From positions 1,549,637-1,613,636 of the forward strand of contig CBDFNI010000010.1 of assembly GCA_965250175.1 (NCBI GenBank): 64,000 bases of DNA, written 5' to 3'. The DNA is from Planctomycetota bacterium. GTDB lineage: Bacteria > Planctomycetota > UBA1135 > UBA2386. Every line of letters begins with the position of its first letter. Within the stretch, counting starts at the first letter, position 1. Below the pieces are notes generated by a model. It was given only the letters and a program-made list of their open reading frames with translations. It was not told the origin of the DNA and made no database searches. Positions 11,716 to 59,643 of the stretch are shown here, in pieces. A program made the translations under genes and the position numbers.

Positions 11716-12189
11716 GGACCGGTCGCGCCGTCAAATGGATCGGAACCACCCTGTCCTCGCTTCCCAAGCATAGAGGGTCGGTTGCCGTCGTAATGGATAG
11801 GGGTGGGAAGCCCGGTTGGAACACCGGCTTAGGGGGGAAAATTTGGCTCAGGAGAGTAGCCCCACCCCCCCAACAGTCAAGCGGCTCCTGGCCCGCTTTT
11901 CCCACCGCGCTCGTAGGCGAGGGGGCGTAAATCCCGGTGAATACATGGAGAGCGACCGAGCCCCTCGGAGCCAGGCTTGGCTACCTGCCGAGAAGGACGA
12001 CCGAGCTCGACGCAGTAGAGACCTGGATTTACGTCACCGCAGTAGAGAGAGGTAGAGTTTGGCAGAGAGGGGTTGGGAAAGGCGGGCCAGCCCCAGGTCA
12101 GATTCCCTTGCCAAGGCGGCATGCCTCCCAGCCTGCAGTGCCCCCCAGGCAAATCCCGAAAATGCAGGCAAGGCCCTCAGGCCTGCCGC

Positions 12190-32193: not shown

Positions 32194-32197
32194 CTAG

Positions 32198-41591: not shown

Positions 41592-41611
41592 AATTCTTGA
41601 GGTTACGAACA

Positions 41612-42523
41612 TCATTGGAACAAGCCTTCCACACTCAGGTAGCGTTGGCCGGTATCAGCGAACACCGCGACGATGACCTTGTTTCGATGTTCCGGCTGCG
41701 CCGCCAAAGCCAAGGCCGCATGGGCCGCGGCGCCAGAGGAGATGCCCACCAACAAGCCTTCGCGCCGGGCTACCTGACGAGTCATGTGGAAGGCCTCTGC
41801 TTCGCTCACCAAAAAGAAGTCATCGATCAGCGCCCGATCCAAAGTGTCCGGCACAAAGCCCGGAGCTGTTCCCATCATGCGATGCGGCTGCCATTTCCCC
41901 TGCGAGATAAAGGGCGCTTCCTTGGGCTCCACCGCCACCAACTGCACCTGGGGATTTTGTTCCTTCAAGTAACGCCCCGCTCCACACAGGGTCCCACCCG
42001 TACCCAAGGCCGCCACCAGAATGTCGATGTGACCTTGGGTGTCCTGCCAAATCTCCGGCCCAGTTGTAAGGTAGTGGGCCTTGGGGTTGGCCGGGTTGAC
42101 ATGCTGGCCGATGTAGAAGTACTCCGGGTTGGCACCAAGGATCTCCTGCAGCTTCTGCTTGGCTCCTTTGGTACCCAGTGCAGCCGGCGTCAGGATCAGC
42201 TCCGCCCCCAGTGCTTGCAGCACTTGCCGCCGTTCCAGACTTTGCATCTCCGACATCACCAGGATGGCCCGGTAGCCGCGGACCGCAGCAATGGAAGCCA
42301 CCGCCATCCCCGTGTTGCCACTGGTGGCTTCGATGAGGGTATGGCCTGGTTGGATTGCACCTTGGGCCTCAGCCTCATTGATGATCTGCAGGACCGGTCG
42401 ATCCTTGAGACTCAGCGGGTTCAGGAATTCACACTTGGCCAGAACCCTGCCCGACTCCGCCAGCCTTTGCAGCCGCAGGAGAGGAGTCTTACCGATGAGT
42501 TGGGTCGCGTTCTGGTAGATCAT
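41612..42523 (-). CDS. cysK: Cysteine synthase / O-acetylserine sulfhydrylase family PLP enzyme.
   Basis: From ATG 42523 the protein reads MIYQNATQLIGKTPLLRL. The PLP-lysine region is FLNPLSLKDRPV, followed by TSGNTG. The ATG overlaps the stop of the upstream sulfatase fragment (ATGA at 42520-42523). The cysK versus cysM assignment cannot be resolved from this sequence. Confidence 0.8.
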   Translation of the reverse strand: MIYQNATQLIGKTPLLRLQRLAESGRVLAKCEFLNPLSLKDRPVLQIINEAEAQGAIQPGHTLIEATSGNTGMAVASIAAVRGYRAILVMSEMQSLERRQVLQALGAELILTPAALGTKGAKQKLQEILGANPEYFYIGQHVNPANPKAHYLTTGPEIWQDTQGHIDILVAALGTGGTLCGAGRYLKEQNPQVQLVAVEPKEAPFISQGKWQPHRMMGTAPGFVPDTLDRALIDDFFLVSEAEAFHMTRQVARREGLLVGISSGAAAHAALALAAQPEHRNKVIVAVFADTGQRYLSVEGLFQ

Positions 42524-42876
42524 GGCCGAGCCGCCTGCCAACCGCTACGCAACTGCTTGGCCAACCGCTGCAGCAGTTCCTTGTCGACTTCATCGACGAT
42601 GTTCCGGTTCTCTTCCGGGTCTTCATGGTGGTCGTAGAGTTCTTTGGCCACCAGTTTTCCTGCAGTCTTCGTCTCCTTATCCCAGGGGTGCCATTCCACG
42701 TAGTTGTATTGCTCCGTGACCATGCTGTAGCCCATGTATGTCTTGCCATCAGGACCACGCCAAATGCCTTCCCGCAGGAACTGGCTGAAGACAGCGCTCT
42801 TCCAGGGCTGGGCAACATCCTGGGTCAAGGGCTGCATGCTGCAACCTTCCAGACCGTCAGGTAGCTGCAAGCCCAC
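42520..42876 (-). pseudogene. 3' fragment of a second sulfatase gene, interrupted by IS630 copy 2.
   Basis: Joining the two flanks across a single TA restores one frame: ...[30 protein letters not shown].... The fragment ends ...LRSGWQAARP. Confidence 0.85.
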
Positions 42877-43970
42877 TAGTGGTGTGATGCGCTCTGTTGG
42901 GGCATTTTCAGTGCAGCGCGTGCGCGACCGACTTTTTCGAGGATCTCGTCGGCGGCCTTGGTCCAAACAATCGGCTTCGGATCGTCGTTGTGGTTATCGA
43001 TGTAGTCCATGATTGCTTTCTTGAGTTGAGGGACGCTGCGAAACGCGTCGCGCTTCAGGCGTTTTTGATCAAGATTGCGGAAAAACCCCTCCACGATATT
43101 GAGCCACGAGCTGCTTGTCGGGATGAAGTGCATGTGGAATCGCGGATGGCGCTTCAGCCACCGCTTAACCTTCTCATGCTTGTGTGTGGCGTAGTTGTCG
43201 GCGATGACGTGCAGATCGAGTTCAGCTGGAGTTTGCTCGTCGATCATTCTCAGGAACTTGATCCACTCCTGATGTCGATGTCGCTTCATGCAGGTTGCGA
43301 TCACTTCGCCGTGACCCAACTCGATCGCGGCGAACAAGGTGGTTGTTCCGTTCCTCTTGTAGTCATGAGTCATCGTGCCGCATCGACCCTTGACCAGTGG
43401 AAGGCTCTTCTGGGTCCGATCGAGAGCCTGAATTGACGTCTTTTCGTCCGCGCTAAAGACGAGTGCATTCTCGGGTGGATTCAGGTAGAGACCTACCACA
43501 TCGCGCAGCTTCTCTTCGAACCGAGAATCGTTGCTGACCTTGAACGTCTTCACCAAGTGAGGTTTCAGACCGTTGGCCTTCCATGTGCGGTGGACCATCG
43601 ACTGCGTGATTCCCATCTCCTCTGCAAGGAGTCGCGTGCTCCAGTGTGTCGCGTTCGCGGGGATCTCTTGCGTAGTCATGCGGATGATCTCACTCTCAAC
43701 TTCCTCGTTCGCACGGGGACGACCTCCCCGAGGAAGGTCCTTCTCTATACCAGTGAGGCGATGCTCGCTGAAGCGGTTTCGCCAACGCCCCACAGTGTGT
43801 CGCTTGACCCTCATCTCCTCAGCTATATCCGCATTCGAGTAGCCATCAGCGGCAAGAAGGATCATTCGGGCTCGCTGAGCTTGCCTCACCGAAATTCTCC
43901 GACTGCGTGACCAATTCGTCAGGGTGCTTCGCTCGCTCTTGGTAAGTTGAATCTCTACTGCAACGCGCAT
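42876..43970 (-). CDS. IS630-family DDE transposase, copy 2.
   Basis: The protein is identical to that of copy 1 in the track translation. Confidence 0.9.
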
Positions 43971-44053
43971 CGTCTTGCCTCCAACGATACCTACGCACCG
44001 CAAGCGTAGGGAGGCTTAATATAAAGGCCTACTAATTCTGCGTCATACCACTA
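42877..44053 (-). mobile_element. IS630-family insertion sequence, copy 2, inverted relative to copy 1.
   Basis: It is 1177 bp with TA at both ends. Only two differences from copy 1 were found by eye: copy 1 has G at 3532 and C at 3622, where copy 2 has A and T. Both changes are synonymous in the transposase. Confidence 0.9.
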
Positions 44054-45263
44054 GTTCACACAAGGTTGGATAGACATCCACGAACTCCACCAGGCGATGA
44101 CACTGATTGCCGTTCTCCTTGGCACCAGGGGCAGAGACAATCAGCGGCACTCGGGTGTCGATATCGTAGTTGGTCATCTTGCACCAACTGCTGTGCTCGC
44201 CCAGCTTCCAACCGTGATCCCCCCAGAGCACGATGATGGTATTCTCTGCCAGGCCCAAGCTATCCAAGGCATCCAGAAGCCGGCCCACCTGGGCATCGAT
44301 GTAACTCACCGAGGCGTAGTAACCATGCCGCAGCAAGCGCTGCTCTGCTTCGGTCAAGGCGCCCTGATCCGGCCTGGGGCCGCCCTTGAAGTCGCTGTAG
44401 CCTCGTAGCTCCCGCATGCTGTTGCTGGCCATGGACGGTGCATCCTTGGGCAGGTAGCCGTTGTCCGCCAAGGGAATCTCATTGCGGTCGTACAAGTCCC
44501 AGTATTTCTTCGGCGCATTGAAGGGCAGGTGGGGTCGGTAGTAACCCACAGCAAAGAAGAAGGGCTCTGCTCGTTCCTTCAGCTCCGCCAGCTTGGCCAC
44601 AGCCACGTCGGTTTGCGCCCCGTCAAAGTAGACATTGTCCGGCAGGTCCACACACTCGGTGGCCGTGTGCTTCAGGTACCACTGGCCAAAGCGATCGATG
44701 TAACGCTCCTGCCTCCCGGCAGCGGTGATGTCCGCCTGCAAGCTGGCCAACCATGCCACATTCTCCGGCTGGCGATACACCGCATCGGGATCAAAGGGAT
44801 AGCCATCAATCTGCAGCTTGGGCTCGCTCCACGACAGGTCATCGGGCAGGTTGTTGTGGAAGATCTTGCCAATGGCGGTGCTGAAATAACCCTGCTGCTT
44901 GAAGTACTGGGCCAGGGTAACAACTTCAGGCCTGGTCTTGCGAAAGTCGGTGTACAAGTCCCACACCTTCAGGCTGTCCGGCCGCAGGCCAGTCATCAGG
45001 CTGGCCCGGGATGGGTTGCACACCGCTTGTTGGCAGTAGGCCTTGGTGAAGGTCACCCCCCGCGTCGCCAGGCGATCGATGTTGGGGCTCTGGATGTGGG
45101 AAGCACCGTAGCAACCCAGCTCGGGCCTGAGGTCATCCACGGCGATGAACAACACATTGGGACGCTTTGCGCTTGGGGCCAATCCCTGCTCTTGCTGGGC
45201 ATGGACAGGACAGGAGCAGACAAGGGCGAGGATGGCGAGAACCAGCGGCATGGGTGGTTTCAT
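44054..45263 (-). pseudogene. 5' fragment of the IS630-interrupted sulfatase (iduronate-2-sulfatase-like).
   Basis: The signal peptide is MKPPMPLVLAILALVCSCPVHAQ (ATG 45263; the track starts at 45272). PNVLFIAVDDLR follows, and the formylglycine motif appears as CNPSRASLMTG. The fragment ends at the IS within YPTLCEL. Confidence 0.85.
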
Positions 45264-45391
45264 GGCCAACACCCTATAGAGGAATTGCTATCCGCCATAA
45301 TACATATCAGCCCCCCTCCCCCAAAAAGCAAAGCTTGCCTGCCTGGTTAGAACAGGTTCGTCCAGGAAGCTGCCAATGGCGCAAACCCTCG

Positions 45392-47150: not shown

Positions 47151-48077
47151 TTAGCCAGTAATGTCCGAGGACAAGGCGCCTATCCCCAGTTCGCCGGAAT
47201 CCTGCATGGCGGCCAGGCGCTGCATCTCGTTCTGCAACTGCCGCACATTGCCGGGCCAGGGAGCCTTGAGCAGTGCCTGGTTTGCCGCATCATCGAAGGT
47301 GAACTTACGCCCCACAGCGGCGGCGGCTCGGTCCAGGAAGAAGCTAGTGAGCAGAAGAATGTCATCCCCGCGCTCCCGCAACGGTGGCAGGGTCAAGGCC
47401 AACACATTCAGCCGGTAGTACAGGTCTTCGCGAAAGGTCTTTTTCGCCACCATCTCTTCCACACCCTGGTTGGTGGCGGCGATGACCCGCACATCCACCT
47501 TGCGTATCTTGGTGCCCCCCACCGGCCGCACCTCCCCTTCCTGCAGGGCGCGCAACAACTTGGCCTGCATGGACAGGGGCATGTCGCCAATCTCGTCCAG
47601 GAACAGGGTGCCCTTGTGCGCCGCCACGAAGTGACCGCTGTGGTCCCGCACCGCTCCGGTGAAGGAACCGCGCACATGGCCAAACAGGACCGATTCCAAC
47701 AGGGTCTCGGGAATGGCGGCGCAGTTCTCACTGACAAAGGGCTGCCTGGCCCGTGGGCTAAGTTTGTGGATGGCCTTGGCCAGGACTTCCTTGCCGGTGC
47801 CACTCTCGCCACGGATCAACACCGGGGCAGAGGCAGCGGCGAACTTGCTGGCCTGCTTTTCCAGCTTGAGGATGGCAGCACATTTGCCAATCAGGCCATG
47901 CCAGGAATAGGGCACTTCGATCTCTGGCGTTGCTGTTGCGGTAGCCGCAGCCGCAGTGGAAGCCATGGCTTGCTCCAACATCTCCTGCATCTCCAAAAGC
48001 AAATCCGCATCGTGCAAGGAGAGTGCCTGATCCAGGATCTGCCGCCACTGCTGCAGGATGGCATGCCTATCCGTCAA
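47151..48077 (-). CDS. Sigma-54-interaction AAA+ domain protein lacking both a receiver domain and a C-terminal HTH.
   Basis: Motifs seen are Walker A GESGTGKE, the GAFTGA-type loop as GSFTGA, Walker B LFLDEIG, RLNVL and GNVRQLQN. The ORF ends 19 aa after GNVRQLQN. Only about 65 aa precede the AAA+ core. The TTG start at 48077 overlaps the end of uvrD by 11 nt. Confidence 0.75.
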   Translation of the reverse strand: MTDRHAILQQWRQILDQALSLHDADLLLEMQEMLEQAMASTAAAATATATPEIEVPYSWHGLIGKCAAILKLEKQASKFAAASAPVLIRGESGTGKEVLAKAIHKLSPRARQPFVSENCAAIPETLLESVLFGHVRGSFTGAVRDHSGHFVAAHKGTLFLDEIGDMPLSMQAKLLRALQEGEVRPVGGTKIRKVDVRVIAATNQGVEEMVAKKTFREDLYYRLNVLALTLPPLRERGDDILLLTSFFLDRAAAAVGRKFTFDDAANQALLKAPWPGNVRQLQNEMQRLAAMQDSGELGIGALSSDITG

Positions 48078-50217
48078 AACATTCTCCCTCGGGCAGGACC
48101 TGGAAAGCCTCGTGATCCGGCAGCAGGGTGCGATCCACTGCGTCCTTGAAGCGCACCACCACCTGCGTACGCGAGCCCATGCCGTTGACGCGGAGCACTT
48201 CGCCGGGGCCGTAGATCTTGTGGATCACCTTGCTGCCCGGGTAGAGGGGCTGCATCTCAATGTCCGTATCCATGTCGTACTCCGACTCCTCCTCATGCAC
48301 ATCATAGGCATCCCAGGCACTGGCGCCACGGTCCACATACTCGTCGGGAATCTCCGCCAGGAAGCGGGAAGGACTCTGGGTGTTGGTCATGCCGGCAACC
48401 ATGCGCGCCCGACTATAACTCAGCAACACGGTCTTGCGGGCACGAGTCAGGGCCACATACATGAGACGACGCTCCTCCTCCAGGTCGGAAGGCTCCAGCA
48501 AGGAACGCTGGTGCGGAAAGATTCCTTCTTCCAAGCCCATGACCACCACATGATGAAACTCCAGGCCCTTGGCGGAGTGCACGGTCATCAGGGAAATGCG
48601 GGGCCCTTCGCTCTGCTGGCGATCCTCGGAAGTCATCAGACCAATGCGATGCAGGTAGGCCGCCAACCCCTCACCATTCTCCGAATCATACTGGGCCGCG
48701 TCATTCAGCAATTCGCCCACGTTCTCCAGGCGCGCCTCATCCTCCGGCTCACCCAGACCACCGGCATACTGCAGGTAATTGCTCTCCTCCAACAACACCT
48801 GCAACACATCCGCCGCCCGGCTCTGGTCGGTCACCGCTTCCAGCACCGCCGCCAGTTGCTGCACGCCCTTCTTCGCCTTGCCGCTCAAGAGACCAGGCGC
48901 AGCCGGATCTCTGACCACTTCCGAAAGGGACATCTGCTGCTGCTCCGCATGCTTGCGCAACTTCTGCACACTCACCTTGCCGATGCCCCGGGGCGGCACG
49001 TTGATGATGCGCTCCAGACTCACGTCATCCAGGGGATTCACCAACACCCGCAGGTAGGCAATGAGATCCTTGATCTCCCGGCGCTCGAAGAATGACAGGC
49101 CCCCCACAACTTTGTACGGCAGGCCCATGTGCCGCAGGGACTGCTCCAACAAACGGCTGAGGAAGTGGGCGCGATAGAACACGGCGCACTGGTCCGGATC
49201 CATGCCATCATTCAGCAGGCCCATGAGGTGGCGAGCAATGTCCTTGGACTCGGTGATGGCATCGTTGCAGCGCAGCAGCTGCAACTGGGAACCGAATTCC
49301 GCCTCGGTGAGCAGCTCCTTCTCCATGCGCTGCTGGTTGTTCTCGATCACCGCCTGAGCTGCACCCAGGATGCAGGCGGTGGAGCGGTAGTTGGTCTGCA
49401 GGCGAATGATCTGGGTGTCCGGGTAGTCATTCTCGAAGTCCAGGATGTTGCGCAGCTCGGCCCCGCGAAAGCGATAGATGGACTGGTCCGGATCGCCAAC
49501 GACGCAAATGTTGCTGGTCTCCTTACCCAAGAGACGCAGCAGTTTGTACTGGACGAGGTTGGTGTCCTGGAATTCATCCACCAGGATCCAGCGATAGCGC
49601 TGCTGGTAGATCTGGGCGATGGCCTCGTGTTCTTGCAACAGATCCACGAAGCGCAGCAGCAGGTCATCGAAGTCCATGGCACCGAGGGCCAACATGCGCT
49701 CTTCGTAGGGCCGATACAACTTGCCGACGATGGCATCCAGGCTGCTCATGCCAGAGATCATGTCGTCGGGGCGCATGCCCACATTCTTCAGGCGAGAAAT
49801 GCGGCGGCCCACGTCGGCGGGGCGGGCTGTACCCTCATCCAGGTCCAGGCTCTTCATCAGGGACTTGATGCAGGCGTTGCGGTCGTAGGTGTCGTAGATG
49901 GAGAAGTCCCGGGGGTAGCCGAGAAGGTGACCGTCTTGGCGCAGGAATCGGGCGCAGGCGGAGTGGAAGGTGGAGACATGCACGCGAAAACCGCCCTGGG
50001 CCTCGACGCGGTAAGCCATTTCCTGGGCGGCCTTGTTGGTGAAGGTGAGGGCGAGGATCTGGCTGGGCTGCACGCCTTGCTGCAGGAGGTGGGCGATGCG
50101 TCGGGTGATGACGCGGGTTTTGCCGGAGCCGGCACCGGCCAGGACCATGAGGGGCCCTTCGCCGTAGGTTACGGCTTTGCATTGGTCTTCGTTCAGCTCG
50201 GCCAGCACATCAGTCAT
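48067..50217 (-). CDS. uvrD: UvrD/PcrA/Rep-family ATP-dependent DNA helicase.
   Basis: Motifs include Walker A AGAGSGKT, TFTNKAA, TFHSACARFL, VDEFQDTN, QNYRS-like TNYRST and VALTRAR. The C-terminus has a Tudor-like tail. Length is 716 aa. Confidence 0.9.
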   Translation of the reverse strand: MTDVLAELNEDQCKAVTYGEGPLMVLAGAGSGKTRVITRRIAHLLQQGVQPSQILALTFTNKAAQEMAYRVEAQGGFRVHVSTFHSACARFLRQDGHLLGYPRDFSIYDTYDRNACIKSLMKSLDLDEGTARPADVGRRISRLKNVGMRPDDMISGMSSLDAIVGKLYRPYEERMLALGAMDFDDLLLRFVDLLQEHEAIAQIYQQRYRWILVDEFQDTNLVQYKLLRLLGKETSNICVVGDPDQSIYRFRGAELRNILDFENDYPDTQIIRLQTNYRSTACILGAAQAVIENNQQRMEKELLTEAEFGSQLQLLRCNDAITESKDIARHLMGLLNDGMDPDQCAVFYRAHFLSRLLEQSLRHMGLPYKVVGGLSFFERREIKDLIAYLRVLVNPLDDVSLERIINVPPRGIGKVSVQKLRKHAEQQQMSLSEVVRDPAAPGLLSGKAKKGVQQLAAVLEAVTDQSRAADVLQVLLEESNYLQYAGGLGEPEDEARLENVGELLNDAAQYDSENGEGLAAYLHRIGLMTSEDRQQSEGPRISLMTVHSAKGLEFHHVVVMGLEEGIFPHQRSLLEPSDLEEERRLMYVALTRARKTVLLSYSRARMVAGMTNTQSPSRFLAEIPDEYVDRGASAWDAYDVHEEESEYDMDTDIEMQPLYPGSKVIHKIYGPGEVLRVNGMGSRTQVVVRFKDAVDRTLLPDHEAFQVLPEGECFDG

Positions 50218-50275
50218 GGCCTGAGCATAGGCTGCGGGTCGGGATTACACCACCGAGAGAAAGTGGGTGTTTCGC

Positions 50276-51523
50276 TCACTTGGCTGCGCGCTGGTCTTGG
50301 GTAAAGCGCTTGATGCACTCTCGCGCCTCTTCAAGGTTTTCGTTAAGCACCTTGACGACCAACAACTGCGTGCCAGGGACATCAGTAAGCGGGTTGCAGG
50401 AGGGTAATTCTGATTCAAAGCTTCTACCCCACATCCCATGAAATACCAGAAACGTGGAGTACTTCAAACTCACCTCACCCGGTTCCCCTGCCTCCAGGAG
50501 ATCGAACACCTCCTGTAACTTGTCCAAATAACCACGACTACCTTCAATCTTGACGACGTGCCTCCATTCATTTTTTCGAACAGGGTTCACAGCTTTAGCA
50601 TCATGGTTCCCATACCTTACGCTCGATCCGGTCATCCTCCAGATGTAGAGACGAACCGAAACCCTCTTGGCAAAGCAATTGAGGCCAAATTCACGCACTT
50701 CCTTCTTTTCCCCAAGGACTCCGCAAGGAGTGGTTTTGAAATAGCCTGGGCAAAAGTACAGTTGGTGAATTTTCCTTGCTTGATCCACCATCCGCGAGAA
50801 TTTCACAGACCCTTGCCGATCGTCTAGTTCCTCGAGGCACCTCTTGGCAATCCTATGGATGGGGAGATTGTTGGTGAAGCGAGACAATCTGCCCCACTCT
50901 TGTGCCATGTAGGATTTGTTCGTCGACGCGAGAACTTCCGCACAAGCCAAATATGAATTCAGAGGGGTGAGATGAGTGTCATCTAATGAATCCCATGACA
51001 TGCCAGTTTTTCGCTCCATGAGAGCGGTCCATGAGTCATTCGGTGGCGGTGGTGGAGGCAAATAGCTGCGCTGGTCCTGCACATGAGCAAAAACACCAGC
51101 ATCCAGCCCCCTAGAATCCAGATATCCCCTGAATCCATCTTGAACCGAGGGGACGTACCCATTTCCAAAACTGGCCATATAGTTCAGAACGGCGACTCCG
51201 GAGAACTCATCTGGATAGCGTGACGCCACCCAATCCACCTTTTTCCAGTTTTCGAAATCGTACAACTCAGCAATGAATGACTCCACCATGGCGAACTTGG
51301 AGAGCTTGGCATGCGGAATGCGTTCCAGATGCACCGACCCGGCAGGAATGGCCAGGTAGTGTTTGAACTCTTCGGAGTCCAACACCGCCTGGAACCAGGC
51401 CTGGTCAATGTCTGTCAACCTTGCCGCATTCCATCCGGTGGCCCACTTCTTGTCCTGCGCGGAAACGGAACACGCAATTCCCAGCAAGAGAACCGAGGTC
51501 AGGACAAGGGATTTGCTATTCAT
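50276..51523 (-). CDS. Hypothetical secreted protein (415 aa from internal ATG 51523), low GC, family not recognised. It is in frame with the upstream metB-like gene and no stop separates them.
   Basis: MNSKSLVLTSVLLLGIACSVSAQDKKW is a canonical signal peptide located 435 codons into the 850-aa track ORF. Single 60-nt lines sampled by eye in this region give 42-57% GC, against about 60% for the flanks. Confidence 0.55.
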   Translation of the reverse strand: MNSKSLVLTSVLLLGIACSVSAQDKKWATGWNAARLTDIDQAWFQAVLDSEEFKHYLAIPAGSVHLERIPHAKLSKFAMVESFIAELYDFENWKKVDWVASRYPDEFSGVAVLNYMASFGNGYVPSVQDGFRGYLDSRGLDAGVFAHVQDQRSYLPPPPPPNDSWTALMERKTGMSWDSLDDTHLTPLNSYLACAEVLASTNKSYMAQEWGRLSRFTNNLPIHRIAKRCLEELDDRQGSVKFSRMVDQARKIHQLYFCPGYFKTTPCGVLGEKKEVREFGLNCFAKRVSVRLYIWRMTGSSVRYGNHDAKAVNPVRKNEWRHVVKIEGSRGYLDKLQEVFDLLEAGEPGEVSLKYSTFLVFHGMWGRSFESELPSCNPLTDVPGTQLLVVKVLNENLEEARECIKRFTQDQRAAK

Positions 51524-52828
51524 ACCATCGGGCCCGCTGGTCCGAAAATCCGAACCAGCGAGCCCGACAGCTTGAGGCACTGAGTCATAAGGCACCACTG
51601 GCACACCATCCAGTTTGCCAGCCTTCGCCGGTACACCATTCCGCTGCAGCAGCACAGCCTCCACCCGTTGCAAGCCTGCTCGCAGGTCGGCCAGGAGATC
51701 CTCCTGATCTTCAATGCCCACCGACAGCCTGAGCAACTGGTCCGAGATGCCCGCAACCTTGCGCGCCGCCGGATCCATCGCAGCATGAGTCATCGTCGCC
51801 GGGTGTGCCACCAGGCTCTCCACCCCGCCCAAAGATTCCGCCAACGAGAAGCATGTAAGCCCATCCAGGAAGGCTTGCACCGCACCGGGAACATCAGGCA
51901 ACTCAAAGCTAAGCATCGCACCAAAGCCCTCTTGCTGCTGCTTCGCCAATTCATGCCCCGGATGACTCTTCAAGCCAGGGTAGAACACCTTGGCCACCGC
52001 ATCGTGCCCATCCAAAAACGCCACCACCGACTCCACATTTTCTACATGCAAACGCAGCCGTGCATGCAGCGTGCGAATGCCCCGCAAGGTCAGGAAGCTG
52101 TCGAAGGGAGCCCCCGTGATGCCCAAGCAGTTCGCCCACCAGGCCAACTTCTCATGCAAGTCATCCGTTGCCGCCACCACGGCGCCACCCACCACATCGC
52201 TATGGCCGTTCAGGTACTTCGTCGTCGAGTGCACCACGATGTCAGCGCCCAAGTCGATGGGCTTTTGCAGCACCGGTGACAAGAACGTGTTGTCCACCAC
52301 CACCAGCGCGTCACAGTCTTCACCGTGCTTCACCACCGCCTTGATGTCCGTGATCCTTAGCAGCGGATTGCTGGGCGTCTCCACCCAGATCATCTTTGGC
52401 TTTTGCGCCACCGCTTCTTGCAGCGCCTTTTTGTCCGTCTGATCCACCAGCAGCAACTTGAACTGCTGCTTCGCCGCCAGAGTTGTCATCAAGCGATAGG
52501 TACCGCCATAGCAGTCGTGCGGTGCCACCAACAGATCGCCGGGTTGCAGCAACTGCAGCGCCAGCGTGATGGAGGCCATCCCCGAGGATGTCACCACCGC
52601 TCCCGCACCATTCTCCAGCTTCGCCAGGGTTTCCCCCAGCAGATCCCGCGTCGGGTTGCCCGAACGCGTGTAGTCGTACTGCCGCTTCTGGTCGAAGCCG
52701 GCGAAGGAGAAATTGGAGGAGAGATGCAGTGGCGGCACCACTGCGCCGAACTGAGTGTCGCTTTCCAGACCACTGCGCACCGCCTGGGTGGCAGCTGCTT
52801 GAGCTTTGTTGGGTATGTTGTTTGTCAT
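51524..52828 (-). CDS. Cys/Met-metabolism PLP enzyme (cystathionine gamma-synthase or O-succinylhomoserine sulfhydrylase type) lacking its own stop codon.
   Basis: Motifs YTRSGNPT, SGMASI, the PLP-lysine region HSTTKYLNGHSD and the C-terminal RLSVGIEDQEDLLADL are present. Recognisable similarity ends near 51650, but the frame stays open into the next coding region. Confidence 0.8.
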
Positions 52829-52830
52829 GG

Positions 52831-53841
52831 CTATAGAGTTGTTGAGAGAGAGTCTTGAAGAATGGGGGTCAAGGCCTGCACTTCCTTGAGGAAGGCGTCG
52901 TGGCCAAACAATGAGGGTAGAACTTGCAGGTTGCCGTAGGGGCCCAGGGCCGCTACCAGTTCCTGCGCTTGTTGCAACGGCACCAATTGATCCGTGGGCA
53001 CGGACACCACCGTGGTGGCCACCTTCACCTGCTTTGGATCTATCAGGTGCAGGTCAATGGCCTGGGACAGCAGCAGGAAGACTTCGGGATCAAACTTCTT
53101 GGCGAAGTCAACGCCGCGGGCCGTGAGGTAGTCCTCCACCTCGAAGCGGGCGATGCCGTCTTCGAAGCGAGGCTCCTGGCTGAAGCGCTGGCCGAACTCG
53201 TCGTAGCTGCGGTAGCTGGCCATGGCCAAGCCTCGCGCCAGACCCATGCCCTGAGCAATGTCGCCATGGGCTTGAGCCAAGCGCACGGTTTGCCGTTGGA
53301 TGCTGCGCCAGGCGGTGGCCATAGGATGGCTTTGGTGGGCAGCGGAGATGCAGACCAGACGCTGCAGGCGTTCCGGGAACTCAGCCGCCAGGGCCAGGCC
53401 AACCATGCCGCCGTAGGAAGAACCGATGAAGGAGTGCACTGCCGGTTCCTGCAGATGATCCAAGAGGCAGACCAGGGCCCGCGCTTGATCCTTGGAAGAG
53501 ATGGCGGGGATGGGCTCAGTGCTACGCCAGTTGCTGGGTCCGGTGGAAGCACCTTGACCGCCCAGGTAGTCCACCCCCAGCACGCGGTACTGGTCGGTGT
53601 CGATGGCCAGCCCTGGGCCAACGAAACTTTCCCACCAGCCACGCTGCGGGTCGAATTCATTGGAACTCACGTGCCGGCCGGCGGAGATGCCGCCATGCAC
53701 CACCACCAGCGGTGCGTCTTGCGGTCCATTCAGTTCAAAAGCCAACTGCGCACCGCGGAGTTCACCGCCGTGCTGCAGCTTGAACTGCAAGGGTAGATGG
53801 TAGATTCCCGTTCCCTGGGAGATTGTGACGCTGGTGCTCAT
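52831..53841 (-). CDS. metX: Homoserine O-acyltransferase (MetX family, alpha/beta hydrolase).
   Basis: From ATG 53841 the protein reads MSTSVTISQG.... Motifs seen are VVHGGISAGRH, GVDYLGG and the nucleophile elbow GSSYGGMVGL. Two nucleotides separate its stop from the metB-like start. Confidence 0.85.
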   Translation of the reverse strand: MSTSVTISQGTGIYHLPLQFKLQHGGELRGAQLAFELNGPQDAPLVVVHGGISAGRHVSSNEFDPQRGWWESFVGPGLAIDTDQYRVLGVDYLGGQGASTGPSNWRSTEPIPAISSKDQARALVCLLDHLQEPAVHSFIGSSYGGMVGLALAAEFPERLQRLVCISAAHQSHPMATAWRSIQRQTVRLAQAHGDIAQGMGLARGLAMASYRSYDEFGQRFSQEPRFEDGIARFEVEDYLTARGVDFAKKFDPEVFLLLSQAIDLHLIDPKQVKVATTVVSVPTDQLVPLQQAQELVAALGPYGNLQVLPSLFGHDAFLKEVQALTPILQDSLSTTL

Positions 53842-53855
53842 TGAATCTCCTGGGC

Positions 53856-54911
53856 TTAGCTGGCAACACAATGTGGGCGGCACTGCGGGTAGAGAGCCCA
53901 CAGGTCATCCAACAAGGCCGATGCGGTACCATCTGGTCCCAGACCCTGGCCCACATGCACGCGGGTCACCCCGGACGCCAGGGTGTAGGTGTAGACCACC
54001 CGATCCGCCGGCACCGCCAAGGGTGAAGTCAGGGGCAGTTCCTCGTAGGAAACCTGCAGGGCACCATCACGACGACCACGAGCCACCAGTCTGGTGGTGA
54101 AGCCACGGGATTGGCGTTCGCGCAATACATCAGGATCCAAAGTGTTCAGGTGCTGGCGCGGGATGGATGCAATATCCACCGGGCCATGCCACAAAGCACC
54201 AGTGACTATGGCCAGCTTCACCGCGGCATCGGTGCCGTCCAGGTCCAAGCTGGGGTCCGTCTCCAAAACGCCTTGCGCCTGCGCCTTGGCGATGCCGCCT
54301 TCGATGCTATCGCCGGCTTCCACGGCTTGGATCACCGCGGTGGTAGAAGCGTTACCCACCAGCGCAAGCTCCAGACTTTTCGTGCGCAGCTCCGGCAGCT
54401 CAAAACGAAAGGTCAAGCCAGTGCCACCGAGCACCGCATTCAGCCCTACCTTGTTGACGCCTAGTTGCAGCAGGCGATCCACTGCCAGGCAGATGGAATC
54501 CTTGGCGCAGAGCACAAGATGACTGCCGGCTTGCAGAGCTGCCAGACTGCGCTTCACCGCAGCTTGACCGTTGCTCACATTGGTGGCGGTGGCATCCACC
54601 ACCACGTCGGCCTGGGTCAGGCCTAATGCCAGTGCGGCGGGCACGTTTTCAGCGCCGGCGCGTTGGGCCAGCTTGCCGCCTTGGCCCTTGAATGCCGCCA
54701 GTGCCAGGGAGTCCAGGCCATGCCGATGATGCAGGGTGGCACTGGAGTCGGTGAGCCCGATGAGGCGGAAGGGCGTGTTGGGAAGAAGAGAGAGGAAGGC
54801 GCGACCAACCTGTCCAGCTCCCAGAACATGCAGGGAGGGAGTGAGCAGGGGAGGGGTGCTGGGCAGGGTCGGGGACGTGCCGGAAGTGCAGTAGGTTTCG
54901 GTAACTTGCAT
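53856..54911 (-). CDS. hom: Homoserine dehydrogenase.
   Basis: The NAD motif is LGAGQVGRAF. The catalytic-domain segments are ALVGNASTTAVIQAV and ETDPSLDLDGTDAAVKLAI. A GGAG Shine-Dalgarno-like motif lies 7 nt upstream of ATG 54911. Confidence 0.8.
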   Translation of the reverse strand: MQVTETYCTSGTSPTLPSTPPLLTPSLHVLGAGQVGRAFLSLLPNTPFRLIGLTDSSATLHHRHGLDSLALAAFKGQGGKLAQRAGAENVPAALALGLTQADVVVDATATNVSNGQAAVKRSLAALQAGSHLVLCAKDSICLAVDRLLQLGVNKVGLNAVLGGTGLTFRFELPELRTKSLELALVGNASTTAVIQAVEAGDSIEGGIAKAQAQGVLETDPSLDLDGTDAAVKLAIVTGALWHGPVDIASIPRQHLNTLDPDVLRERQSRGFTTRLVARGRRDGALQVSYEELPLTSPLAVPADRVVYTYTLASGVTRVHVGQGLGPDGTASALLDDLWALYPQCRPHCVAS

Positions 54912-55014: not shown

Positions 55015-55126
55015 GGACTCATCTTCCGGTAACCTCGTGGTTCCCGCGGGAATTAGCACCTGCCGACCGTCCGGTGGTTGCTCCAGCTTCATAGGGCCCG
55101 TCCCTCAGCTAGTCTGGATGAGTATG
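55015..55126 (-). promoter_or_regulatory. SAM-I (S-box) riboswitch in the leader of hom-metX-metB.
   Basis: The minus-strand sequence is ACUCAUCCAGACUAGCUGAGGGACGGGCCCUAUGAAGCUGGAGCAACCACCGGACGGUCGGCAGGUGCUAAUUCCCGCGGGAACCACGAGGUUACCGGAAGAUGAGUC. It contains the conserved S-box blocks: P1 CUCAUC...GAUGAG, GAGGGA, GGCCC.AUGAAGC, GCAACC, GGUGCUAAUUCC and GAAGAUGAG. The aptamer ends about 105 nt upstream of the hom ATG. Confidence 0.88.
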
Positions 55127-55187: not shown

Positions 55188-57494
55188 TTACCGCGTAGCG
55201 AATTGGACCTTCAGCCGCCGCGGTTCGCCATCGGAACCGACATAAGTCCATTCCACACGCATGCTGCCCTTCAGGGGAGCCAGGGGATAGAAGACCGCCA
55301 GACCCGGTGCGGAGGCCCGCCGGTTGCTGCCTTGGTCCGCCAGATGCAGGATGCCCGGCACCGGCTTGTCACTGCCCTCACCCCGGAACAACTGGCATTG
55401 GATGGACTCTCGCTGCCTTGGCAGGCCGGAGCCAAAAAAGTGCAGGCTCAGTGGGTAGCCCAGGATCTTGCGCCTGCCTTCGCCGTTGGCGTCCAGCAAT
55501 CGCTGCACCTCGGGCCCGAGTTCCTTCACCTGCACCTGCCGCGGCACACCCACGGCACGGTAGGTGGGATGCTGGGCCATCTGCATGCTCCCCGTGGTGG
55601 CTGAACCCCGAAGGGTATCCATGACCATGATGGGACCTTCCGCATACATGCCCAACACCAGCAGGTTGGAATTGAGGATGGCGTCCCGGTAACCGGGCAA
55701 GGCCATCCAAGCCTGCATGACCTTGGCCGGCTTCTGGCTCTGGGTGTTGACTACAGCCATCTGGGCAAAGAGATTGCCATGGCGAGTTCCATGCTCCAAG
55801 TCTTGGTCCTGCATGTGTTCCAGGGCCGGACCACGCTGCTTGGAATTGGCCTTGAGATAATGCACGTGGTTGCGACAGCGTTGGGAAAAACTAGCATTCC
55901 AGCTCACCACCGACACCTTCATCTCGGCACGCTTGTCGTTGAAGGCCCGCAACCATTTGGGGGCGTCCTTGCTGGAAGCCTCCAGCGGTGAAACCTTGTT
56001 GCGCAATGCTTTCAACACCGGCGTCTTGCCGGTCCAAAAATCCCGCCAGCCCTGCTCCAGATGATCCAGGGACAGACCCTTGGTCTTCTCCACAAACAGC
56101 TTGCGCACTCCTGCAGCATTCCTTTCCTTGCGGGTCTTATCCAAGTGCCGCAGCAATGCGGGATCCCGTCGCAACAGATAATCCGCAAAGGACCAGGACT
56201 TGATGCGCGCATCATCGGGGAACTGTGCCGCATTCAGCAGCGGCAACCTGGCTGCTGGAGTACCCGCCAGGTCATAGGCCGCCTCCACCGCCAGGTCAGA
56301 CCAGGACTCCATGTCCGGCACCATCAGCGGTATCTTGCGATCCCCGACAACGGTGAACTCCTTCTCATTCACATTGATTATATAGATCAGGTTGCGGCCA
56401 AAGAATCGCCCCACCACCGCATGGCCAATGCCTTCGGTCAAGGCATCGGTGTGAAAGTTCGCAAAGTCCTGGGCGACTCCCCGCACGGCGCGATCGAAGA
56501 CTGCCGCCAGGCGGCCGATGCCTATATGCATGCCATTAGACGAACCGGAGCCTAGTACATAGCCCCCGGGATCTTCCATCATCAGGTCGAACACGGCTTG
56601 GTTTGGCACCAGGCCGCGGTTGGCAGTGAGCACCTTGCGGAAATCATCCGGCTCGCGCAGGAAGACATGGTGCCGCAACACCGACCTACCGTCGCCAAAA
56701 ACGTCATAGCCCGCATAGGCATCCCGGCAAAAGGCCAGGGATCGCTCCGCAAACATGGCTGCTTCCTTCAGGGTCTCCTCATCCCAGTCGCCCCAGACCT
56801 GGAAGTTCTCCGACTTCACCCCAATGTAGGAAAGCTCCGCCTTCTCCAGGTAGGGGTGGGTCGCCCCTTCCTCTTGGCGCTGCACTGCATACTCCTTGCG
56901 CAATTCTCGCTCCACCGCTTCTTCCAACATGGTGGAACGCTCATAGATGACCTGTTCCAGGTCGGTGCCCCGCAGCCGCTGTGATCCATTGCCTGCCAGG
57001 TCCTTCATGCCCAAGGCCACCTGCGCCTCTTCACTCTCGGGCACAAAGCGCAGCACCCGCTGCCAATGAAACTGCGACCTGTCGCTCCGCCCCGCCGCCT
57101 CATAATCCACCGCCATGGCCTGGTGCGCCTTGCCCACCTCCTTGCAAAGCTTGCTCCAGGCCTTGGTCTGACGCTTGGCCGCCGCCACATCCGGATTGCT
57201 CTGCATGGGGAAGGAGAAGCTCTTGTCCGGCGCCCATGCCTTGCCACTGGGAATGAAGCCCAGGTTCTTGCGCGCATCCGCATCGTCGTTGTCGTACTCC
57301 GCCAGGATCTCCAACCAGATCAGCTTGGCCTCTTGCGGGAGACCTGCCCGTAGGGCGGAGCTGGCATAGGCGTTCAGGGCCTTGGCCTGCTTACGCAGGA
57401 ATTGCAACTCTTCGGCGTCCTGCGCCAACACGGGCACAGCCAAGACAAAGCTGAGTGCCAAGATGTTAAGGGTACTGCGCATGCTGCGGATCAT
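55188..57494 (-). CDS. Large secreted protein of unknown function with a CAP-like segment near the C-terminus.
   Basis: The signal peptide is MIRSMRSTLNILALSFVLAVPVLAQD. The protein is 768 aa. The segment NHVHYLKAN...HGNLFAQMAVVN...LPGYRDAILNSN resembles CAP/SCP motifs, but only weakly. Confidence 0.65.
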   Translation of the reverse strand: MIRSMRSTLNILALSFVLAVPVLAQDAEELQFLRKQAKALNAYASSALRAGLPQEAKLIWLEILAEYDNDDADARKNLGFIPSGKAWAPDKSFSFPMQSNPDVAAAKRQTKAWSKLCKEVGKAHQAMAVDYEAAGRSDRSQFHWQRVLRFVPESEEAQVALGMKDLAGNGSQRLRGTDLEQVIYERSTMLEEAVERELRKEYAVQRQEEGATHPYLEKAELSYIGVKSENFQVWGDWDEETLKEAAMFAERSLAFCRDAYAGYDVFGDGRSVLRHHVFLREPDDFRKVLTANRGLVPNQAVFDLMMEDPGGYVLGSGSSNGMHIGIGRLAAVFDRAVRGVAQDFANFHTDALTEGIGHAVVGRFFGRNLIYIINVNEKEFTVVGDRKIPLMVPDMESWSDLAVEAAYDLAGTPAARLPLLNAAQFPDDARIKSWSFADYLLRRDPALLRHLDKTRKERNAAGVRKLFVEKTKGLSLDHLEQGWRDFWTGKTPVLKALRNKVSPLEASSKDAPKWLRAFNDKRAEMKVSVVSWNASFSQRCRNHVHYLKANSKQRGPALEHMQDQDLEHGTRHGNLFAQMAVVNTQSQKPAKVMQAWMALPGYRDAILNSNLLVLGMYAEGPIMVMDTLRGSATTGSMQMAQHPTYRAVGVPRQVQVKELGPEVQRLLDANGEGRRKILGYPLSLHFFGSGLPRQRESIQCQLFRGEGSDKPVPGILHLADQGSNRRASAPGLAVFYPLAPLKGSMRVEWTYVGSDGEPRRLKVQFATR

Positions 57495-57510
57495 AGGTTA
57501 AGGTTTGGCC

Positions 57511-59643
57511 ATGCCATGGTTTGACCCAGCATCCTACCGAAACAGCACAATGCTGGCATTGCTTTTCGTCTTCGCCTGCCTGCTGCCCGCGCAAGAGCAG
57601 CCGCAAGAACGATCACAAGAAACAACGCCAGAGCCAAAGCAGGAGCAACGCTGGATCACTGTGCAGAACCTGGCGCCCGCGGCTCGGGAAGAATGGGCCC
57701 AGGTGGTAGTACCCTTCGCCAAGGGCCAGGTAACAGAATCTCCCGACCTGCATGTGCAGGGACTGCCCACGGTATGGCAACCCTTTGGCGCCCGCTGGGA
57801 TGACGGGTCCTGGCGCCAAGCCCTCTGCTTCTTTCCCATGGCCATGCAGGGCCTGAGCGAACGCAAGCTCCTTTTGCAAGCGGGGCCTGGCCCGGAACTG
57901 GATACGAAATTCGACAGCGACCCCAGCGCCGAACTGGACCTGCGCTTTGTGCTGCAGAATGGTCAACAGGAATTCATCGGCAAGCCCGAGCTGGTCTGCC
58001 TGCTGGAAGAAAATCCAGCACGGCAAGTGACCCTGCTGCGTTGCCGCCTGGGCGACAGCGGTCTATTGGCCGAGGTCATCCTGACTCGCTACCACAACCA
58101 GGAGATCATGCCCTTGGACATCGCTGTCTTCTTCAGTGACCCCAACAGTTCTGACATGCAGCGCGAAGTTGAACTGCTGTCCCTGCAGTGCCAGGGCATG
58201 GACCTGCAGTTCTACCACGGCCCGGCCCTGGGCATGTCCAAGCAGACCAGGGAAGATGGCATCCAGTACTCCATCCTGCAGAACGCCTCGCTGGGAGACG
58301 GACAGGGCATTCGCCGAACTGGCGTGCTGTTGCCGACGGCTGCGGATGCCGAGAATCCCGAGAGCTCTTCAGCGATTGCCGCAGCCACCTGCCCACTGTT
58401 GGCCGCCACTACTTGGAGCGACAGTCAGGCCTTCGGCCCCTTTGGCCTGGTGCCCCAAAGCCCGCCCTGGCTGCGCGGCAACCTGGGTCGGCGGGCCATG
58501 GCCAAACGGCATGCCAACTTCGCGCGCCAAAGCCAGACGACCGGTAACCCCTTCCAACATTACCCATTCAGTCTGGCCAAGTATCCGGGACAGACCGGCA
58601 ACCAGGCTGACTTTGGTTTGCTGAAGTTGAGTCCGGTAGCTCGCAGCGGCCTGCCCTCCTTCCTCTGGGAAGTAGAACTCTCGGTGCTGCAGGAAGCCTG
58701 CCGGCCGGTGCACATGTTCGAAGGCAATGGCGAACCGCTGCAAGCCAGTGATCATCCGGACTGGGTGGTGTGGAATGGTCGCACCCACTGGAACAGCAAG
58801 GTAAGCGTGGACCGCCTGGGCAAGCCCGCCCCACAACCCAAGTTCGACAGCCACGGCTGGGCCGGCAAGGACCGGCAACACTGGAGTAGCAACTACCTCT
58901 GCGCCTACTACCTGCTCACCGGCAAGCACTGGGCGCTAAGGGAAATCGAAAACGATGTGCAGCTGTTCATGGCTTGCCAGACTATCAAGGAAGGCCAGGT
59001 CACTTCCAAGTCCGGTGCGCCCAGGGCGGCCGGGCGCTGCATGCTGGCAGGTTGCTGGTACTACCTGTGCACCGGTGATGCAGACCTGCTGCAACGCATG
59101 CACCTGCGCATGCAACTTGCCCACCTGCCCTACTGGCAACATCGAGAATTGCCCACGGACAAGGTGCGCACCATGTCGGTGATGCGACCGGACCCGCGCG
59201 TTCTGAAAGGCCAACATGCCTACTGGGTGCCGTGGCAGGATGCACTGGCTTGCGTTGGCTACGCTGCTTTTTATCGCCTGAGTGGCAACCCCCTGGCGAA
59301 GGAGATGGCGGACGGCCTTTCGCTAAACGTCCTGCGCCATGGCTGGCGCATCACGCAAAAGGGCGCCCAGGTGGGTTACGCGCTGAGTTGGCTGGATGAG
59401 GGCCTAGGCCTTAGCGAGGCCGAAAAACAATTGGACGATGGCAAGCTGGCGACTTGGGCTGGCGGCGGCATCGGCATCTGGAGTCTGCCGGCGGTGGAAT
59501 GGGCCCGACAGGCCGCAGAGGCCCAAGGAATGCGGGAGTTAGCAGGAAAGGCGGCGCACATCCTGGGCTTGCTGCGGGCCAGCCGCCGACCAGGCAAGGA
59601 CGGTTGGTGGGACGACCTGAGTGAATGGGACGCCCTGCGCTAG
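57511..59643 (+). CDS. Large secreted protein of unknown function.
   Basis: ORF of about 710 aa. The hydrophobic N-terminus is MLALLFVFACLLPAQEQ. The start is ambiguous: TTG 57505, ATG 57511 or ATG 57550. No family was recognised. Confidence 0.65.
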   Translation: MPWFDPASYRNSTMLALLFVFACLLPAQEQPQERSQETTPEPKQEQRWITVQNLAPAAREEWAQVVVPFAKGQVTESPDLHVQGLPTVWQPFGARWDDGSWRQALCFFPMAMQGLSERKLLLQAGPGPELDTKFDSDPSAELDLRFVLQNGQQEFIGKPELVCLLEENPARQVTLLRCRLGDSGLLAEVILTRYHNQEIMPLDIAVFFSDPNSSDMQREVELLSLQCQGMDLQFYHGPALGMSKQTREDGIQYSILQNASLGDGQGIRRTGVLLPTAADAENPESSSAIAAATCPLLAATTWSDSQAFGPFGLVPQSPPWLRGNLGRRAMAKRHANFARQSQTTGNPFQHYPFSLAKYPGQTGNQADFGLLKLSPVARSGLPSFLWEVELSVLQEACRPVHMFEGNGEPLQASDHPDWVVWNGRTHWNSKVSVDRLGKPAPQPKFDSHGWAGKDRQHWSSNYLCAYYLLTGKHWALREIENDVQLFMACQTIKEGQVTSKSGAPRAAGRCMLAGCWYYLCTGDADLLQRMHLRMQLAHLPYWQHRELPTDKVRTMSVMRPDPRVLKGQHAYWVPWQDALACVGYAAFYRLSGNPLAKEMADGLSLNVLRHGWRITQKGAQVGYALSWLDEGLGLSEAEKQLDDGKLATWAGGGIGIWSLPAVEWARQAAEAQGMRELAGKAAHILGLLRASRRPGKDGWWDDLSEWDALR

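Follow-up and report, generated by a model that had tools for sequence, protein, structure and literature searches.

A metB reading frame that runs through a putative operon-end hairpin into a foreign gene for a predicted lipoprotein in a Planctomycetota bacterium: a probable case of stop codon loss

How does a methionine biosynthesis gene come to continue, without a stop codon, into an unrelated gene for a putative exported protein? This question is raised by a 64-kb stretch of the genome of a Planctomycetota bacterium (contig CBDFNI010000010.1; hereafter the window), in which metB and a downstream gene, here called X, form a single open reading frame (ORF) of 850 codons. The favoured answer, with a probability of about 0.6, is that the metB stop codon was lost recently and in this lineage alone, which joined two formerly separate genes as an accident of one genome. 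The ORF and its parts are as follows.

50276..52828, minus strand: the fused ORF, which opens at ATG 52828 and runs uninterrupted until the stop codon 50278-50276 (850 sense codons and the stop).
51650..52828, minus strand: the metB catalytic part, ORF residues 1-393, a cystathionine gamma-synthase / O-succinylhomoserine (thiol)-lyase.
51572..51649, minus strand: the variable C-terminal tail of MetB, ORF residues 394-419 (26 codons), with no stop codon.
TAT 51589-51587, TCA 51583-51581 and CAA 51574-51572, minus strand: in-frame near-stops in the MetB tail, each one substitution from a stop codon.
51587-51585, minus strand: an out-of-frame TGA in the MetB tail (frame +2), 13 nt before the hairpin.
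51524..51571, minus strand: an RNA hairpin of 22 uninterrupted bp with the loop AUUU, ORF residues 420-435 (16 codons).
50276..51523, minus strand: gene X, encoding a predicted lipoprotein of 415 amino acids (aa) from an uncharacterised family, ORF residues 436-850 and the stop.
51523-51473, minus strand: the predicted signal peptide of X, followed by the lipobox Cys codon at 51472-51470.

The earlier note, made from the sequence alone, had described the ORF as a chimera that begins with a complete Cys/Met enzyme dependent on pyridoxal phosphate (PLP). Both statements hold, with the end of the enzyme domain now placed at about residue 392-393. Residues 13-386 match Pfam PF01053 (E 7.5e-138; 459.7 bits, cut-off 27; positions 1-380 of the 381 in the profile) and residues 11-388 match TIGR02080, cystathionine gamma-synthase, with 607.4 bits against a cut-off of 504.55, while residues 436-850 are unrelated and of lower GC content. 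The PLP-binding lysine has an established role in the Cys_Met_Meta_PP family; its motif, HSTTKYLNGHSD, is intact and the same as in relatives, and the S-x-T-K pattern that marks this lysine reads HSTTKYLNGHSDVVGG both in the window ORF and in the proteins P0021-P0030. With a codon model trained on 12 genes of the window, the MetB part scores 0.35 bits per codon, similar to other host genes. A single-domain MetB is expected to have about 380-420 aa and to end just past the GLxR helix, whereas this ORF encodes 850 aa. The MetB part should remain active, given that nothing is missing from its fold and that tails as long as 45 aa are tolerated in orthologues.

The 850-aa product is represented by one NCBI/ENA record (P0020, 100% identical, a singleton cluster, on a contig of 2,149,505 bp). 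As P0020 stands on record as a single protein, the source annotation likewise treats 50276..52828 as one gene. A word-indexed search for the fusion elsewhere returned only the window's own protein, and the fused MetB-X ORF was found in one genome only. The public 850-aa "MetB" record is better read as MetB plus an unrelated gene for a predicted lipoprotein, and its reading as a bifunctional enzyme is inapt.

Some 40 unrelated residues had been reported between the two parts. Such a stretch does precede Met436, but it comprises about 43 residues, and this "linker" consists of the variable tail of MetB (residues 394-419) and the hairpin (residues 420-435). The tail resembles the Pro/Ala/Val-rich variable tails of MetB orthologues, which in the eight closest relatives extend 9-27 aa past the conserved GLxR and are not alignable, and which at 86 orthologue loci range from -1 to 45 aa beyond residue 392. 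Frame 0 has the best codon score in the tail (+3.2 bits, against -4.6 for frame +1 and -12.4 for frame +2). The other frames are closed by stops at 51587-51585 (frame +2) and 51522-51520 (frame +1), frame 0 has none, and no homopolymer of at least 4 nt occurs within 51572-51660.

Gene X begins at ATG 51523 with the signal peptide MNSKSLVLTSVLLLGIAC, as the earlier note had proposed. Bacterial lipobox signals follow a rule (PROSITE PS51257) that combines an n-region containing K or R, an h-region free of charged residues and the pattern [LIVMFWSTAG]2-[LIVMFYSTAGCQ]-[AGS]-C, whose Cys should lie no more than about 15-35 residues from the start; in X these elements are K4, LTSVLLLGIAC and Cys18. 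Counted from the start at 52828, the lipobox Cys is residue 453 and lies outside the positional range of the rule. P0001, P0002 and P0014 also satisfy the rule, and in the family alignment a hydrophobic N-terminal stretch and a Cys aligned with Cys18 of X are present in P0001, P0002, P0003, P0005 and P0007. The signals of the more distant members P0010, P0013 and P0015 are read as being of the signal-peptidase-I type. In most complete members the N-terminus is a secretion or lipoprotein signal that lines up with ATG 51523, and the family is therefore predicted to consist of exported proteins with this N-terminus. X and several homologues thus resemble bacterial lipoproteins processed by Lgt and LspA in having an n-region, a hydrophobic h-region and the box [LVI..][AGS]C, whose Cys falls at positions 15-37, but in the window ORF the signal would be internal (ORF residues 436-453) if translated as written, and the X family differs in having neither a structural match nor an assigned function.

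No Pfam or NCBIfam family matches X (415 aa), and the X family has no matches in PADLOC, PHROGs or the PDB sequences. A word-indexed search of 5.8 billion proteins yielded one homologue, the free-standing 415-aa protein P0001, with 35% identity over X residues 36-405. An exhaustive HMMER profile search of 1.84 billion cluster representatives yielded 18 X-family proteins at E <= 0.001, which are 65-544 aa long and all free-standing. Two metagenome scans and one viral scan contained no X. An AlphaFold2 model made from the 18-sequence alignment (predicted local distance difference test 81.8, predicted template modelling score 0.77) comprises a helical domain (residues 33-256) and an alpha/beta domain (residues 270-414), for which Foldseek found nothing at E < 0.1 in PDB and BFVD. 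X is predicted to be an exported lipoprotein with a helical N-terminal and an alpha/beta C-terminal domain. The family is a small addition to the uncharacterised envelope proteins, with no Pfam, solved-structure or viral-structure match despite the confident model.

The genomic neighbourhoods of the homologues differ. One homologue is encoded beside an aminotransferase and a subtilase (L001), while others lie near a sigma factor and asd (L084) or near a lipid A acyltransferase (L085). P0003 lies in an islet (L083, 4644-9110) consisting of a tyrosine integrase, a hypothetical gene, a DUF5343 gene and a DpnII/MboI-like gene, followed by the X homologue, and is the sole X-family member seen beside mobility or defence-like genes. 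Since these neighbourhoods are unrelated and variable, X appears to be a rare, patchily distributed, stand-alone gene for an envelope protein. Three distant members, P0009, P0010 and P0014, have only the N-terminal helical domain in common with the others, with the motifs FAHIxDE, QPYMxxEWxRLSxFxxN and EFSxLV; their different C-terminal domain of about 150-200 aa ends in a common FxLGGTSAGTxxFRK motif.

A drop in GC content falling exactly over X had been claimed from sampled lines. A windowed GC run confirmed that the drop is real, but it is less sharp than described. In 300-nt windows the GC content is 0.49-0.52 over 50300-51350 and about 0.60 on either side, with a gradual climb to 0.58-0.61 by 51500-51650 at the 5' side of X, and a rise from 0.50 (50300-50599) to 0.63 (50000-50299) over about 300 nt at the 3' side. 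The GC content of X is 0.515, and that of its third codon positions (GC3) is 0.595, against a GC3 of 0.65-0.80 in 13 other window genes. Read in its own frame, X scores 0.02 bits per codon, whereas host genes score 0.25-0.53, and it is the lowest of the 16 window genes measured for GC, GC3 and codon score. The reading frame of X is unambiguous and its codon usage is foreign.

In its atypical GC content and codon usage, its patchy family and the replacement of syntenic genes, X is like genomic islets and single-gene acquisitions. It differs from them, and from its homologue in the integrase islet of L083, in that no integrase, tRNA, insertion sequence (IS) element or significant direct repeat adjoins it; the nearest transposase lies about 6 kb away. 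Insertion through an 11-nt repeat, GACCAGCG[G/C]GC (51542-51532 and 50296-50286, with one mismatch), was rejected as being at chance level (17 such families per 2.4 kb). Nor does this model of insertion by microhomology regenerate the hairpin.

The hairpin at 51524..51571, between the MetB tail and X, is the longest uninterrupted hairpin within the 64-kb window. Its stem consists of 16 Watson-Crick and 6 G.U pairs and is perfect on the sense strand only. Because 6 of the 22 pairs are G.U, the sense RNA folds more strongly (-44.3 kcal/mol, z -9.1) than the antisense RNA (-30 kcal/mol). The probability that random transitions would leave all six mismatches as G.U on the sense strand is at most 1/64 by our own calculation, an indication that the element works at the RNA level, in the sense transcript. 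The hairpin region is non-coding by score in all three frames. Its stem abuts ATG 51523, and the U and G of the AUG of X pair within a 3-bp extension of the stem. An Rfam search returned only noise far below the threshold, and a match to a known RNA family was rejected. Programmed -1 frameshifting, defined by a slippery heptamer X XXY YYZ located 5-9 nt upstream of a stable structure, was also ruled out, as the sequence gac tca gtg cct caa 5' of the hairpin contains no such heptamer.

As a stable, GC-rich stem-loop of 22 bp just 3' of the last gene of the operon, the hairpin is similar to intrinsic terminators and to 3' stabilising stem-loops. No U-tract follows it: AUGAAUAGCAAAUCCC stands in that place, and the minus-strand terminator scan found nothing. 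To place this element, the organisation of the operon and its flanks has to be considered; the remaining features are listed below.

55016..55124, minus strand: S-adenosylmethionine (SAM) riboswitch of class SAM-I (Rfam RF00162: 79.8 bits, gathering score 44.4), heading hom-metX-metB.
53856..54911, minus strand: hom, a short homoserine dehydrogenase of 351 aa (Pfam PF00742, E 2.9e-23).
52831..53841, minus strand: metX, homoserine O-succinyltransferase type, 336 aa from ATG 53841 (NCBIfam NF006449, 362 bits against 296).
50218..50275, minus strand: a spacer of 58 nt from the stop of X to the start of the helicase gene.
48067..50217, minus strand: a PcrA/UvrD-type helicase of 716 aa (PF00580 and PF13361; TIGR01073 with 712 bits, below the cut-off), a native syntenic flank.
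47151..48077, minus strand: a sigma-54 activator AAA+ protein of 308 aa (PF00158, E 2.1e-70), a native syntenic flank.

Among the GTDB species representatives, MetB identity reaches only 68% and there is no downstream synteny. In a larger protein collection the closest MetB proteins are 75-77% identical, 382-415 aa long and unfused. The loci L088-L090 comprise a SAM-I riboswitch (81.4 bits), hom, metX, metB (399 aa), a stop, a hairpin and hisS; the hairpin of L088 is a GC-rich stem of 18 bp located 5-6 nt past the metB stop (-37.6 kcal/mol, z -4.4), with no U-tract. The Tara Oceans scaffolds L091-L093 carry hom, metX, metB (402 aa), a stop, a hairpin with a U-rich tract, and hisS. Beyond hisS lie genes for a LysM protein and, in the opposite orientation, a radical-SAM protein, and then those for a UvrD-type helicase and a sigma-54 activator. 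The hairpin of L092, of about 20 bp, starts about 18 nt past the metB stop (-42.9 kcal/mol, z -4.1) and is followed by the U-rich tract AUUUCUCGUUUG. At L094 there is no hairpin after metB, which overlaps the next gene, a cupin. The arrangement of a metB stop, a hairpin 5-18 nt later and hisS is therefore found in two of the three relative lineages.

Across the 86 orthologue loci, stems of at least 9 bp after metB are modestly enriched (21% against 7%); this uninterrupted-stem test missed the bulged hairpins of the closest relatives, for which RNAfold z-scores were relied on. Judged by its place, the window hairpin appears to be the positional equivalent of the met-operon hairpin after metB in the relatives. 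It differs from the counterpart in L091-L093, which has a U-rich tract, and now lies within an ORF.

The gene order and riboswitch of the window are the same as in the Xanthomonad-type hom-metX-metB operons with a SAM-I riboswitch represented by L088 and L091-L094. The hom product is 54-58% identical to those of L088 and L091-L094, and that of metX is 52-60% identical to its relatives. On the other side, the helicase aligns along its entire length, with 56-60% identity, to the one encoded about 3 kb downstream of metB in L091-L093, and the sigma-54 activator is 59% identical to the product of the gene after the helicase in L092 and L093. On these similarities, the window appears to be syntenic with its relatives on both flanks. 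The only difference is that X (1.25 kb) occupies the slot of the hisS-LysM-radical-SAM block (about 3 kb); L091-L093 carry no X there, and no hisS, LysM or radical-SAM gene of this block was found anywhere in the 64-kb window. The best 120 MetB relatives listed are 382-487 aa long, with X in none, and the relatives have a stop and then the hairpin, whereas the window ORF runs on without a stop for 457 further residues. A second MetB read-through at L048 was considered and rejected, as MetB there is a normal protein of 397 aa.

This arrangement bears on the proposal that a foreign gene had removed the metB stop on its arrival, which is probably not what happened: a positional hairpin is retained, the junction lies 3' of it and the missing stop lies 5' of it. 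It is very improbable that, in line with this leading idea of the earlier note, the foreign segment included the hairpin and part of the linker, as the 5' region of X in its donor, so that a left junction within the metB tail deleted the stop. Such an event would explain why the ATG of X abuts the hairpin and why the hairpin has no sequence similarity to those of the relatives, and it would account for the stop loss and the insertion at once. However, the relatives carry a significant hairpin at exactly that place after metB, the tail and hairpin together have a host-like GC content of 0.61, and as far as the hairpin no frame scores better than frame 0. Furthermore, at none of the five distinct loci of X homologues examined is there a comparable hairpin before the start of the gene, and inheritance of the hairpin with X was rejected on this ground.

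The description of X as a foreign ORF inside the riboswitch-controlled operon needs a similar qualification. X does lie downstream on the same strand, but the counterpart of the relatives' operon-end hairpin separates metB from it. The spacer at 50218..50275 has no terminator-like or promoter-like site and the minus-strand terminator scan is empty there. As only these 58 nt follow X, the met operon, X and the helicase gene may by now share one transcript.

The favoured reading, loss of the metB stop in this lineage, may be set out as follows. The ancestral layout would have been the SAM-I riboswitch, hom, metX, metB, a stop, a long GC-rich hairpin acting as a terminator or stabiliser, and hisS. 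In the lineage of the window, the foreign gene X would then have replaced the hisS-LysM-radical-SAM block, with the foreign DNA joining immediately 3' of the retained hairpin and the ATG of X lying against the 3' base of the stem. Because this junction is 3' of the hairpin, we infer that the insertion itself did not delete the metB stop. The ancestral stop would have stood about 0-15 nt 5' of the hairpin. The simplest cause of its loss would be one substitution: TAA to CAA at 51574-51572, TGA or TAA to TCA at 51583-51581, or TAA or TAG to TAT at 51589-51587. A 1-nt deletion just upstream of the TGA at 51587-51585 would have had the same effect and is disfavoured because of the frame scores and the lack of homopolymers. 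The chance that the 16-22 codons concerned are open and in frame with X is estimated at about 0.16-0.20 at this base composition, so the fusion is explicable without selection.

Translation through a stem suppresses its function as a terminator, as in attenuation. Ribosomes starting at the metB ATG would traverse the hairpin, keep its stem unfolded and cancel its terminator or pause function. The product would be an 850-aa polypeptide of MetB, tail and preX under the control of the SAM riboswitch, and X, perhaps together with the helicase gene 58 nt further on, would have joined the SAM-controlled operon transcriptionally and translationally. X would then be made as a mislocalised C-terminal passenger or, less certainly, be exported via its now-internal signal. 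Ribosomes are unlikely to start independently at ATG 51523 as long as the stem stays folded, since the start codon itself takes part in base pairing at the foot of this -44 kcal/mol structure. No Shine-Dalgarno sequence precedes X, which is uninformative, as most genes here have none. The ATGA that had been taken for a coupled-gene junction is real in so far as a TGA (51522-51520) overlaps the ATG of X, but coupling did not stand, since frame +1 is non-coding, rich in Cys and Trp and not the frame of MetB; the overlap is read as a coincidence. A frameshift into frame +1 ending at this ATGA was rejected on the same grounds of score and composition.

Several observations weigh against the stop-loss reading. 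The fusion comes from one genome, which leaves room for a base-call error. No MetB relative above 77% identity was found, and the position of the ancestral stop and the timing of its loss are deduced from more distant loci. The 5' compositional boundary of X is gradual, with a GC3 of 0.72-0.75 over X codons 6-65, no mobile element of the kinds named above adjoins the gene, and the reading does not account for the start of the foreign DNA exactly at the ATG of X. As the window hairpin has no U-tract, its label as a terminator derives from its position, and as its sequence is unlike that of the relatives' hairpins, it could in principle have come with X.

A sequence or assembly error is the most plausible of the alternatives and is still unlikely. 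In this case the true genome would have a metB stop just 5' of the hairpin, lost from the record either by a wrong base at an in-frame stop or by an erroneous 1-nt deletion shifting the TGA at 51587-51585 out of frame, and MetB (about 414-419 aa) and X would be ordinary neighbours. The layout would then match that of the relatives exactly (stop, 0-15 nt, hairpin), and frame +2 does hold a TGA 13 nt short of the hairpin; only one genome shows the fusion, and the relatives' assemblies do contain frameshifts, an example being the hom gene of L091. Yet none of the approximately 25 other window genes scanned with Pfam was seen to be split, including those for proteins of 709, 716, 920 and 1131 aa, and the contig of 2.15 Mb suggests a good assembly. 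The variant with an indel hiding the stop, which the earlier note had put forward, is disfavoured in particular: there is no homopolymer of at least 4 nt in 51572-51660, frame 0 is the best to the hairpin while frame +2 scores -12.4 bits and is rich in Cys and Trp, and the indel would have to adjoin the TGA within a few nt. Because no split gene was found in the scan, the contig is very long and the critical stretch has no error-prone repeat, a genuine stop-loss mutation, whether accidental or selected, is preferred over a base-call error.

That the fusion was selected for its function is improbable. On this account, the stop loss would have been favoured as the sole way to express X, whose start is buried and which has no promoter of its own. 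The internal signal would insert MetB-preX in the membrane, with MetB inside and X outside; Lgt and LspA would lipidate the product and cut it at Cys453, giving a mature lipoprotein X and a membrane-tethered MetB. The start codon is indeed sequestered in the -44 kcal/mol stem, the lipobox and MetB are both intact, X keeps all of the motifs common to its closest full-length homologues and so is not decaying, and positive charges (R429 and K439) can be read on the MetB side of the hydrophobic segment. Against this, no second genome has MetB-X, the linker is non-coding by score and shows no sign of adaptation, and cells do not normally treat an export signal as cleavable when it follows a large folded domain. 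A true fusion had also been ranked last in the earlier note. No conserved fusion was found, with a MetB domain in none of the 18 X-family representatives and the best 120 MetB relatives listed unfused. More doubtful still is the elaborated version in which the stop loss acts as an activation switch, with ribosomes melting the hairpin and translating the promoterless X as MetB-preX, followed by Lgt/LspA cleavage, all under the control of the SAM riboswitch.

Each component of the locus is of a known kind, namely MetB, an S-box operon, an operon-end hairpin, a lipoprotein precursor, a horizontal acquisition and stop-loss read-through. Together they make a neat, singular case, in which the foreign gene directly adjoins a terminal hairpin that was retained and became coding. 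Stop-loss gene fusions and C-terminal extensions into 3' non-coding sequence are known events (for example "The Recent De Novo Origin of Protein C-Termini", PMC4494051). The window resembles them in that translation would enter a former non-coding sequence, here the hairpin, and then an in-frame next ORF. It differs from them in that the partner is a horizontally acquired preprotein with an export signal and the recruited piece is a structured RNA of 22 bp.

On the favoured stop-loss reading, the locus would be a clean, datable example of a foreign gene wired into a host operon, in which a single stop loss makes a terminator coding. Provided that the read-through is genuine and that X continues to be exported, the locus would offer a natural test of the processing of an internal lipoprotein signal, and if this signal directs export and cleavage, the fusion would resolve into two products.

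Some further observations concern the other genes of the operon and its surroundings. The metX ORF is open from GTG 53901, and AGGAG precedes ATG 53841. The Hom protein of the window is far below the NCBIfam cut-offs for homoserine dehydrogenases (126 bits at best against 373) and, with 54-58% identity kept in the relatives, looks like a divergent Hom subfamily. In L091 (1881-2953) hom is split into two ORFs matching residues 5-110 and 116-336 of the window Hom, probably by an assembly frameshift. Upstream of the riboswitch lie genes for a 768-aa protein (55188-57494, minus strand) and a 712-aa protein (57505-59643, plus strand), neither of which matches a Pfam or NCBIfam family. In L094 (1-3502) the region upstream of hom encodes two tandem paralogues that share 41-44% identity with the 768-aa protein, which suggests that this protein is a conserved, uncharacterised neighbour of the met operon.

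The window contains four transposase genes, consistent with a rearrangement-prone genome. Two of them are tandem, near-identical IS transposase genes of 443 aa (DDE_Tnp_1 and DUF772) at 30681-33627 on the plus strand, with identical upstream regions of 30 nt; a hairpin of 17 bp between them (32177-32214) is the second-longest in the window. An ISL3 transposase gene (39344-40609, plus strand) and an IS630-type DDE_3 transposase gene (42876-44003, minus strand) are interleaved with sulfatase genes at 40581-41615 and 44043-45272 (minus strand), making the stretch 39344-45272 rich in IS elements. At 12073-13917 on the plus strand, the window also encodes a 614-aa protein with two beta-carbonic-anhydrase (Pro_CA) domains.

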